Part shown: positions 54,379 to 55,780 of the stretch, one piece after another | Layout: every line of letters starts with the position of its first letter | How positions within the stretch are numbered: position 1 is the first letter of the stretch | Sequence record: PQ765507 | Source: Escherichia phage 212 | Length of the DNA stretch: 64,000 nucleotides | Strand: one strand, 5' to 3' | The notes under the pieces: generated by a model | The model's input: the letters and a program-made list of their open reading frames with translations, nothing else | Told to the model about the DNA's origin: nothing | The model's database searches: none | Position numbers and translations under genes: made by a program

Positions 54379-54648
54379 ATGAAAACGTATCAAGAATTTT
54401 TGGCTGAATCTGTATTAAATGAATCAGATGAAAGCCGCATGGCATTTTTAGCTAAGAAAGAAGGCTTTGAGTTTACTTCTATTAAAAAAGTTAATGGAAC
54501 TTCATTTAAAGTTGGTGATTGGACCTTTGGTAACAAAGGAAATGGCCAGTGGCAAATTGTAGATAAATCTGGCAAAGAAGTGGATTATTTGTTTAATCAG
54601 AAATTGGGTGATATCGCTAAACTTATGGGTCAATACTCTAAGAAATGA
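54379..54648 (+). CDS. internal-protein-like gene with capsid targeting sequence
   Basis: N-terminus MKTYQEFLAES. Confidence 0.75.
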   Translation: MKTYQEFLAESVLNESDESRMAFLAKKEGFEFTSIKKVNGTSFKVGDWTFGNKGNGQWQIVDKSGKEVDYLFNQKLGDIAKLMGQYSKK

Positions 54649-54686
54649 TGTACATCTCCAAACGATAGGGTTATAATGACCCTATC
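54648..54686 (+). promoter_or_regulatory. early promoter cassette (-10 inside inverted repeat)
   Basis: ATGTAC - 18 bp - TATAAT; arms GATAGGG / CCCTATC. Confidence 0.5.
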
Positions 54687-54703
54687 AACTACGGAGAACA
54701 AAC

Positions 54704-55111
54704 ATGACTCGCATTAATTTAACCCTGGTATCTGAACTTGCTGACCAACATCTTATGGCTGAATATCGTGAGCTTCCTCGCGTTTTTGGTGCAGTTCGTG
54801 AACGTATTGCCAAAGGGCAGGGCTTCTCTGATATCCCTAAAGACTTCCGCCTTGGTTCAGGGCACGTCAAGTTCTTTTATGACAAAATTGGATTTTTGTT
54901 CTTGCGACAAAATGCAATAATTAAGGAACTTCTGAAGCGTGGTTATCAGATTCAAAATACCCATGTAAATGTAGCGGATATTCCATTACGGCTCATGAAC
55001 GATTTCACTCCAACCGAAGCTGATATAGCTTTAAGCCAAGCTCGTCTGGATGAAAAAATTTCTCAAAAACCTACCTGGTACAAATACTATGGGAAAGCTG
55101 TGTACGCTTAA
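54704..55111 (+). CDS. denV: endonuclease V (pyrimidine-dimer DNA glycosylase)
   Basis: 135 aa; [32 protein letters not shown]..., [23 protein letters not shown] match T4 DenV from memory. Confidence 0.95.
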
Positions 55112-55129
55112 CTAAAAAGGTTGTATAAT
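55100..55129 (+). promoter_or_regulatory. early promoter
   Basis: GTGTAC - 18 bp - TATAAT; -35 overlaps the denV stop codon. Confidence 0.45.
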
Positions 55130-55159
55130 GATTTTATCAACCAAACAATGGAATATAAA

Positions 55160-55423
55160 ATGAAAACTTATCAAGAATTTATTACTGAATCTGCCAAAGC
55201 TCCTGCTGGTTCCTTTAAAGTCCGCGCATTCGCTGGTGATGCTGAAGACTTTGGCACCATGAAGCGCAATGGTTATTCTTTCTTTGGCGGCGATGGTAAA
55301 GAAATTGTCACCTATGCAAAACGTCGCGAAATCGCATTCGTGGTTGCTGGTAAGAAAGTTGATGTTGACGATATTGAATGGGACTTTGAGACCTTTGGTA
55401 TTGTTTCTGGCGGTAAAGCATAA
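55160..55423 (+). CDS. internal-protein-like gene with capsid targeting sequence
   Basis: N-terminus MKTYQEFITES; track start 55121 is TTG inside the promoter. Confidence 0.75.
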   Translation: MKTYQEFITESAKAPAGSFKVRAFAGDAEDFGTMKRNGYSFFGGDGKEIVTYAKRREIAFVVAGKKVDVDDIEWDFETFGIVSGGKA

Positions 55424-55425
55424 CT

Positions 55426-55462
55426 GTTTACTTTTTGATGGGATAGTGCATAATTATCCCAT
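55426..55462 (+). promoter_or_regulatory. early promoter cassette (-10 inside inverted repeat)
   Basis: GTTTAC - 17 bp - CATAAT; arms GATGGGATA / TATCCCATC. Confidence 0.5.
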
Positions 55463-55480
55463 CAATTTGGAGAGAATAAA

Positions 55481-55780
55481 ATGAAAACTTATCAAGAATT
55501 TATCACAGAAGCCAAAGCTCCTAAAGCATTTCAAATTGGAGTCCAGGGCAATTTAGACCAACAATATGTTGACGCTATTGTCGCAAGCCTCGGTAAACAA
55601 GGTGTACAAGTGGATTTGGTTGATTTTACTAAAGGTAATACTTTTAATATTGTCACATCTAAAGGTTCTTTAGCTAAAGTTAAAAAGGCTTTTGGTGTAG
55701 CACAAGCATATGAAATTGACCATTCTGAATTAGAAAATAAAGGTCGCCAGAACACAATTAAAGGTTCTGGTTCTTTCTAA
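55481..55780 (+). CDS. internal-protein-like gene with capsid targeting sequence
   Basis: N-terminus MKTYQEFITEA. Confidence 0.75.
   Translation: MKTYQEFITEAKAPKAFQIGVQGNLDQQYVDAIVASLGKQGVQVDLVDFTKGNTFNIVTSKGSLAKVKKAFGVAQAYEIDHSELENKGRQNTIKGSGSF

Follow-up and report, generated by a model that had tools for sequence, protein, structure and literature searches.

What kind of genes are the three small open reading frames (ORFs) that lie around denV in Escherichia phage 212, each opening with almost the same peptide, and by what route have the same first codons come to stand before different proteins? The stretch of DNA considered here, hereafter the window, comprises 64 kb of this phage (sequence record PQ765507; G+C 40.8%), and the ORFs, termed A, B and C, start at 54379, 55160 and 55481 with MKTYQEFLAES, MKTYQEFITES and MKTYQEFITEA, exactly as a first-pass annotation of the same DNA had reported. 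A, B and C are in all likelihood internal protein (IP) genes of the T4 type belonging to the e-denV locus, whose products would be delivered as in T4 and whose payloads, i.e., the parts of the proteins that follow the shared N-terminal tag, would be exchanged by recombination mediated by the tag.

The shared tag and the e-denV locus

The features on which this reading is based are the three ORFs, the capsid targeting sequence (CTS) at the start of each, and the gene lying among them:

54379-54648, plus strand: ORF A, 89 aa
54379-54408, plus strand: CTS of A, MKTYQEFLAE
54704-55111, plus strand: denV, 135 aa, pyrimidine-dimer glycosylase (endonuclease V); Pfam Pyr_excise, 1.4e-14; phrog_1183, 2.1e-52
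55160-55423, plus strand: ORF B, 87 aa from its ATG
55160-55189, plus strand: CTS of B, MKTYQEFITE
55481-55780, plus strand: ORF C, 99 aa
55481-55510, plus strand: CTS of C, MKTYQEFITE

The near-identity of the coding starts at the DNA level, which the first-pass annotation had also pointed out, is borne out by the 21-mer ATGAAAACNTATCAAGAATTT, found without mismatch at 42721, 54379, 55160 and 55481, that is, four exact matches in 64 kb when 0.04 would be expected by chance; in none of 100 shuffled windows were there even five matches at three or fewer mismatches. One 40-nt direct-repeat family covers the three starts. Moreover, codons 2, 4, 5, 6 and 7 are the same in all four MKTYQEF copies (P ~7e-4 when the copies are drawn independently from the window's own codon usage), so that the identity of the DNA exceeds what selection at the protein level gives. 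Elsewhere in the six frames, only diverged copies of the tag are present, at 42077 and 42358, and a seventh tagged ORF, at 41736, starts MSIKTYNEF; the motif is restricted to the two loci that house IP genes in T4.

At the protein level, Y4, F7, L or I at position 8, and E10 are present in each of the three ORFs, and the (L/I)-x-E motif of the prohead protease gp21 is found at residues 8-10 as LAE in A and as ITE in both B and C. Residues 1-10 of T4 IPIII are enough to package IPIII itself or foreign proteins into the head, and gp21 cleaves after the Glu of L/I-x-E (PMC9026906; PMC3012670); according to the summary of Mullaney and Black (1996) given in PMC9026906, residues 4 and 7 of IPIII act in targeting and residues 8 and 10 in processing. 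Reviews describe the CTS as the only part conserved among the diverse IPs (PMC9026906; PMC3012670). The window encodes gp21 and gp22, alongside gp23 and gp20:

8729-10288: gene 23; Pfam Gp23, 2.9e-122
10310-11128, minus strand: gene 22, scaffold; Pfam T4_CASP, 3.8e-91
11161-11799, minus strand: gene 21, prohead serine protease; Pfam Peptidase_S77, 6.6e-102
12484-14055: gene 20; Pfam Portal_T4, 2.6e-191

The position of the three ORFs points in the same direction. The best megablast matches of 53800-56000, among 781 phage records matched, are members of Gaprivervirus (SP18, VR7, CJ20, UPEC07 and the TH phages, at 93-97% identity), and the window comes from a Gaprivervirus-like T4-type phage. 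The borders of the locus are the following:

53361-53852, plus strand: nudE
53879-54370, plus strand: lysozyme gene e of the T4 type, bordering the IP locus on the left; Pfam Phage_lysozyme, 1.3e-12; annotated as e in SP18, VR7 and CJ20
from 55904 as listed, with a probable true start at 55943, plus strand: vs.8

The order nudE-e-A-denV-B-C-vs.8 places A, B and C in the e-denV-vs.8 IP locus, one of two such loci in T4, where the counterpart interval reads e-ipIII-ipII-denV-vs.8; given the homology of the two intervals, the locus is the second of the two classical IP loci in T-even phages. Gene order and position also agree with the annotated ip genes of SP18, VR7, CJ20 and UPEC07, and the gene that A and B had been said to bracket is indeed denV by both Pfam and PHROG. 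The description of the ORFs as internal-protein-like genes with a CTS is thus upheld by their PHROG internal head and virion families, by the T4 ipII/ipIII locus in which they lie and by the retention of experimentally defined CTS residues.

When compared with T4 IPII and IPIII, the likeness extends to the placement between e and vs.8 near denV and to the strand logic, to the CTS, which differs at positions 8-9 only (T4 MKTYQEFIAE, both proteins starting MKTYQEFIAEA), to the (L/I)-x-E site, to an early promoter (GTTTAC in T4) with an inverted repeat around the -10 box, and to mature proteins that are small and mostly basic. In contrast, the payload sequences of A, B and C are unrelated to those of IPII and IPIII, the order differs (e-ipIII-ipII-denV in T4, e-A-denV-B-C in the window), A has no promoter of its own and B is not basic. 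From the polymorphic T-even IPs (Ip4-Ip10 and others) there is no essential difference: C is a member of the Ip7 family, relatives have Ip10 in that slot, and the window represents one more combination of sequenced alleles.

By analogy with T4, packaging, cleavage, injection and anti-defence activity would be expected of A, B and C. Each precursor would bear the 10-residue CTS MKTYQEF(L/I)xE, which would bind the gp22 scaffolding core at head assembly, so that the protein is built into the prohead; gp21 would then cut after E10 at (L/I)-x-E, and the mature protein of 77-89 aa would stay with the DNA in the head and be injected into the next host cell, where it would most probably block a first-line host defence. 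The T4 proteins Ip1, Ip2 and Ip3 inhibit GmrSD type IV restriction enzymes, a different one each (PMC12373910; PMC9391042). What A, B and C would have in common with these three is the predicted route of packaging and injection and a small, single-domain mature protein; they differ in that no payload homology was found (IPI was not compared), and a functional likeness is hypothetical. As for expression and exchange, B and C would be transcribed from T4-type early promoters with the -10 box in a stem-loop and A would ride on e transcripts, whereas the ~30-nt CTS coding sequence and the promoter/stem-loop cassettes would act as homology patches, used by the homologous recombination of the phage to delete, insert and swap payloads within the locus, between the IP loci and between phages.

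Promoter cassettes and the probable exchange of payloads

Each of the three genes had been thought to follow its own early-promoter cassette. This is true of B and C and fails for A, since only a Shine-Dalgarno (SD) sequence is found between the e stop codon and A; the third cassette of the interval serves denV, which bears no tag:

54649-54686, plus strand: denV cassette; TGTACA at 54649, 17-nt spacer, TATAAT at 54672; inverted repeat 54664-54674/54676-54686 with the -10 box in the loop
55100-55142, plus strand: ORF B cassette; GTGTAC at 55100, 18-nt spacer, TATAAT at 55124; weak stem GGTTG/CAACC
55426-55465, plus strand: ORF C cassette; GTTTAC at 55426, 17-nt spacer, CATAAT at 55449; perfect 11-bp inverted repeat 55435-55445/55455-55465

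When the seven promoter-to-tag segments of the window are aligned together with that of denV, the cassette appears at 41736, 42721, denV, B and C and is absent at A, 42077 and 42358, hence in four of the seven tagged ORFs. The RNA hairpin of the denV cassette reaches -18.9 kcal/mol (z -5.9) and that of C, whose -10 box sits in the loop formed by the 11-bp inverted repeat, -18.6 kcal/mol (z -5.4); taken with the pair at 41736 and 42721 (z -3.9 and -4.5), the strong hairpins span -15 to -19 kcal/mol and z -3.9 to -5.9. The hairpin of the B cassette is weak (-7.4 kcal/mol, z -1.5), and the sequence of this cassette is the same across six related phages.

These elements resemble the promoter/stem-loop elements known as PeSL (Arbiol et al. 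2010; Comeau et al. 2014) in that an early promoter is combined with a stem-loop in the intergenic space of a hyperplastic region, and in that one type of cassette recurs before different genes. The T-even IP elements are nevertheless analogues and not homologues of PeSL, with T4-type early promoters, AT-richer stems and no G/C tracts (PMC2839356), and those of the window differ further in having the -10 box within the loop and the tag-coding sequence as a second patch of homology.

Two observations, at 53848-53878 and 54655-54700, concern translation rather than exchange. An outer stem surrounds the denV promoter hairpin, in which UCUCC pairs with the GGAGA of the denV SD, and the SD of gene e lies within the hairpin CCCCTatataAGGGG (53859-53873). 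With the SDs of e and denV inside stems, the ribosome sites would be masked on read-through transcripts and unmasked on those initiated locally. A masked SD is a known design for T4 e.

The behaviour of the locus across relatives is best appreciated from the arrangements of eight related genomes, where P stands for the early-promoter cassette:

SP18 and VR7: e / denV / P-ip10 / B / P-C
CJ20: e / ipII-like / denV / P-ip10 / B / P-C
PSD2001: e / ipII-like / denV / P-B / P-C
UPEC07: e / A / denV / P-C
TH44: e / A / denV / P-B / P-(65-aa MLTYKEFMKE gene) / C
the window and P479: e / A / denV / P-B / P-C

In the six phages aligned beyond denV, the promoter, the leader and ATGAAAACTTATCAAGAATTTATTACTGAA are identical, and three unrelated payloads follow: identity runs through ATTACTGAA, up to and including the E10 codon, and the ip10, B or C payload begins at codon 11. 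In UPEC07, a hybrid tag joins codons 8-9 (ATT ACT) of the ip10/B copy to the C payload. In the left slot, A and the ipII-like gene alternate behind one e-proximal leader, aaataaggtaaaatATGAAAACGTAT, with different payloads, and the right junction of the A insertion falls at the denV promoter (TGA|TGTACA, as against TAG|TGTACA in SP18). That promoter, leader and CTS are shared and the payloads then differ supports crossovers in the tag-coding sequence, in addition to exchanges at promoter cassettes. The sequence features, the homology, the presence of gp21 and gp22 and these recombinant joints in relatives are matters of observation. The earlier proposal, in which promoter and targeting sequence recombine while the payload is swapped, is therefore supported as to the swapping, but the unit is not strictly promoter plus CTS, because a cassette occurs without a CTS (denV) and a CTS occurs without a promoter (A, 42077, 42358).

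More broadly, CTS-type ORFs flank denV in 34 of 89 denV loci, all from Tevenvirinae (T4-like enterobacterial phages), with the flanking ORFs invariably on the strand of denV. Two IP loci with hypervariable payloads behind a constant tag were described in T-even phages by Repoila et al. (1994), as reported in PMC2839356, which also cites Comeau et al. (2007) for more than 30 IP variants, and the IP-associated elements may account for how plastic the loci are (Arbiol et al. 2010, PMC2839356). Integron gene cassettes offer an analogy only, insofar as there, too, short payload genes that depend on a promoter are lined up in arrays and change places at short conserved sequences; the window locus has neither integrase nor attC, its conserved sequence is coding, and exchange would presumably proceed by general homologous recombination.

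Two relatives deserve mention in their own right. TH44 (L005, 3191-3388) has an extra 65-aa gene with the variant tag MLTYKEFMKE between B and C. In VR7 (L002, 3180-3210), the Ip7 gene starts MLTYQEF and 29 nt of the C leader have been lost, including the SD and one stem arm, apparently by microhomology deletion.

The gene lying within this array is itself mosaic. Residues 1-32 and the last ~18 residues of denV correspond to the Gaprivervirus allele, whereas the central ~85 residues are of another type, matching a 135-aa allele of Dhakavirus LHE83 (95.6% overall) and of Klebsiella T4-like phages (89%); as judged from its sequence, the denV of the window is chimeric, which explains why no record covers at least 80% of 53800-56000. 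A locus arrangement unique to this phage, to which that lack of coverage might have pointed, was rejected, since P479 has the same A-denV-B-C order (the start of the P479 record cuts through A).

How well, then, does an explanation fare in which the genes are genuine IP genes, yet swapping is confined to the PeSL-like cassettes of promoter and stem-loop or to illegitimate events, the identity of the CTS being due to purifying selection? PeSL-type elements are documented as recombination points in RB49 and phi1 (PMC2839356), denV and C have strong stem-loops beside them, the A insertion ends on its right at the denV promoter, and the C leader of VR7 has its 29-nt microhomology deletion. However, six phages remain identical through ATTACTGAA and carry three unrelated payloads from the very next codon, the tag of UPEC07 is a hybrid, A and the ipII-like gene have the leader and the first tag codons in common and not the payload, and the tag exists without a cassette in A, 42077 and 42358. 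We regard this explanation as improbable, and exchange through the tag as well as the cassettes is preferred.

The encoded proteins and the strength of the reading

ORF A belongs to phrog_8765 ('internal virion protein', 4.6e-37) and is 100% identical in UPEC07, TH55, TH44, DK-13 and pEC-M719-6WT.2. It adjoins e in all 42 phage records, and the homologues at 63-78% found in phages of Serratia, Enterobacter, Pectobacterium, Edwardsiella and Erwinia all follow e directly; 41 columns are invariant among 12 homologues. Its start lies 8 nt past the e stop codon TAA, an AAGG SD 6 nt upstream being the only signal in between, and A would depend on e for its transcription. The predicted mature protein has 79 aa and a pI of 9.2, and its AlphaFold model, built from a shallow alignment, has a pLDDT of 80.9, with residues 10-15 below 50 followed by a compact alpha/beta domain. 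Just ahead of A, at 54362-54369, TACAAATA matches the late-promoter motif in seven of eight positions, and the motif upstream of A, TACAAATAAGG, resembles the junction upstream of 42077.

A second L-x-E (LNE) occurs in A at residues 13-15 (54415-54423), five residues beyond the CTS cleavage site; all 12 homologues have L13 and E15, and similar second motifs are present in ORFs 41736, 42077 and 42358. To go by sequence, this may be a second gp21 site, which would imply a longer propeptide.

ORF B falls in phrog_2667 ('internal head protein', 9e-21); it is 100% identical to VR7ORF127c and to the VR20 copy, 72% identical to RB69ORF125c, and has a paralogue in ORF 42358 (33% identity, E 6e-16). 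Its predicted mature form has 77 aa. ORF C, from the same PHROG (8.4e-43), is 100% identical in SP18 and TH44 and 49-51% identical to the Ip7 of T2, CC31 and RB33, whose Ip7 genes neighbour 57B at the other IP locus. The mature C is predicted to have 89 aa and a pI of 9.3, and its AlphaFold model, likewise from a shallow alignment (pLDDT 74.7), shows disorder in residues 1-11 (below 50) and then a compact alpha/beta domain, which by structure match of the model has the ferredoxin-like superfold. In the models of both A and C, the tag would thus lie outside the fold. RefSeq phages with identical proteins have them annotated as internal head proteins. In a large protein database, close unnamed relatives number only 11 for A and 21 for C, and literature searches on Ip7 and Ip10, and on vs.8 together with denV, returned nothing relevant.

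Several points weigh against the reading of A, B and C as T4-like, delivered and recombining IPs. The anti-defence target is pure analogy, as the payloads have no similarity to IPII or IPIII and no Pfam, NCBIfam or PDB relatives: BLASTP against T4 IPII and IPIII aligns residues 1-20 only, hence the tag and little beyond it (IPI was not compared), Pfam and NCBIfam give no meaningful match for A, B or C, a PDB sequence search with the three returned nothing, and the fold matches of the modelled payloads are generic or weak and hence uninformative. Mature B, with a predicted pI of 6.2, is not basic, whereas the classical IPs are. A has no early promoter and no exact late promoter TATAAATA occurs in 53300-56500, though proheads assemble late. 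A literature search found no virion proteomics or cleavage data for the A, B and C families, and the joints fit crossovers between one CTS and another, yet the events themselves are unobserved.

Two further explanations are weaker than the one confined to the cassettes. It is very unlikely that any of the three ORFs is in decay and has ceased to be expressed or packaged; A, lacking a promoter, would be the main candidate. It is true that A has no cassette and a late-promoter-like motif matching in only seven of eight positions, and that IP genes are dispensable and often lost, as in SP18 and VR7, which are without A, and UPEC07, which is without B. A is, however, intact and preceded by a good SD; it is fully conserved in at least five phages and retained behind e in phages of the other host genera, its invariant columns and confident predicted fold speak for a maintained protein, and the e gene of T4 is transcribed both early and late. 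Least credible of all is a shared N-terminus that merely reflects an optimum for translation initiation or the mRNA 5' end of small early genes, the proteins being cytoplasmic and neither packaged nor cleaved: although the start region is AT-rich and selection on the mRNA could keep synonymous sites more conserved than codon usage predicts, denV, an early gene with the same type of cassette, starts differently, the motif keeps to the two loci holding IP genes in T4, the conserved positions are those needed in T4 IPIII for targeting (4, 7) and cleavage (8, 10), and the diverged copies MKTFNEFFNE and MQTFHEFLVE retain aromatic-4, EF and E10 despite changed DNA, which indicates selection at the protein level.

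The other IP locus, an RNA element and wider meaning

The remaining tagged ORFs of the window form the other IP locus:

41736-42999, plus strand: other IP locus, after genes 1, 57A and 57B; four CTS genes, at 41736, 42077, 42358 and 42721

The A, B and C families each have a relative in this locus, A being related to ORF 41736 and C to the Ip7 found beside 57B in T2, CC31 and RB33. An exact late-promoter motif, TATAAATA, is located at 42060-42067, just upstream of 42077. The 57B homologue of the window (41220-41675) matches phrog_755 (6.5e-65), which is labelled RNA ligase. In phage COW86c, the neighbour of the Ip7 homologue carries the annotation Acb1-like anti-CBASS protein, by which another counter-defence gene would sit beside the IP array.

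At the right end of the e-denV locus, the G+C-rich spacer that follows C is conserved in the DNA of more than 1000 T4-like phage records, in most of which it is unannotated:

55780-55893, plus strand: structured RNA element of ~114 nt between ORF C and vs.8, with conserved sequence to about 55925

In an alignment of 25 distinct copies, five nested helices and a pseudoknot helix are recognised. The proportion of paired cells is 92.4%, compared with at most 42% when the partners are slid; 45 cells carry double changes against at most 11 in the slid controls, and the covariation score of 0.200 (0.061 in shuffles) was reached by none of 500, a test that is not fully independent because the structure was partly derived from the sequences tested. 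One base pair is co-deleted in four sequences, and the 15 G-U cells, as opposed to 3 A-C cells, point to the plus strand. A covariance-model search, which replaced a 14-base pattern scan of viral contigs that had given mostly chance matches, locates the element once in the window (135 bits), and all copies lie in Tevenvirinae loci. The element has no Rfam match, and folding of the single sequence was not significant (z 0.08 and -0.86).

The element starts 2-16 nt, usually 3, after the preceding stop codon, be it that of an Ip7-like, an IpIII-like or the denV gene, and in most of 32 loci vs.8 follows ~155-160 nt downstream; some of these loci have longer ORFs from an earlier conserved ATG, and L009-L011 have an ip7-like gene between the element and vs.8. 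In T4, the element is shortened and overlaps the start annotated for vs.8. A tentative reading, to which we give somewhat less than even weight, is that the element represents a new class of cis-acting phage RNA closing the IP array and that, separately, A, B and C inhibit as-yet-unnamed host defences. Possible roles of the RNA would be to link vs.8 expression to the termination of translation on the last cassette, or to insulate or stabilise the cassette transcripts.

The start of vs.8 is ambiguous (55825-55945). The listed ATG at 55904 would give MCQGMAQ..., and relatives start at the equivalent of the ATG at 55943 (MRTFLTGPYL). The ATGTGCCAAGGAATGGCCC block at ATG 55904 is conserved across phages and is out of the vs.8 frame in several, and the window has the coding sequence for the annotated T4 N-terminus, PVIRSSPSAV, within the RNA element and in a different frame. 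This could reflect either a short upstream ORF or a mis-annotated N-terminus.

The assignment of an IP system to this locus, recombination at the tag included, is correct but already published (Repoila 1994; Arbiol 2010), and the RNA element beside the locus is the sole item that may be new. The value of the assignment lies partly in annotation, as GenBank still lists several identical copies under 'hypothetical protein', and partly in the comparison of eight phages, in which nature has recorded crossovers at the tag with unusual clarity. Given that Ip1-3 of T4 inhibit GmrSD type IV enzymes, the A, B and C families would be ready candidates for the screening of injected anti-defence proteins.

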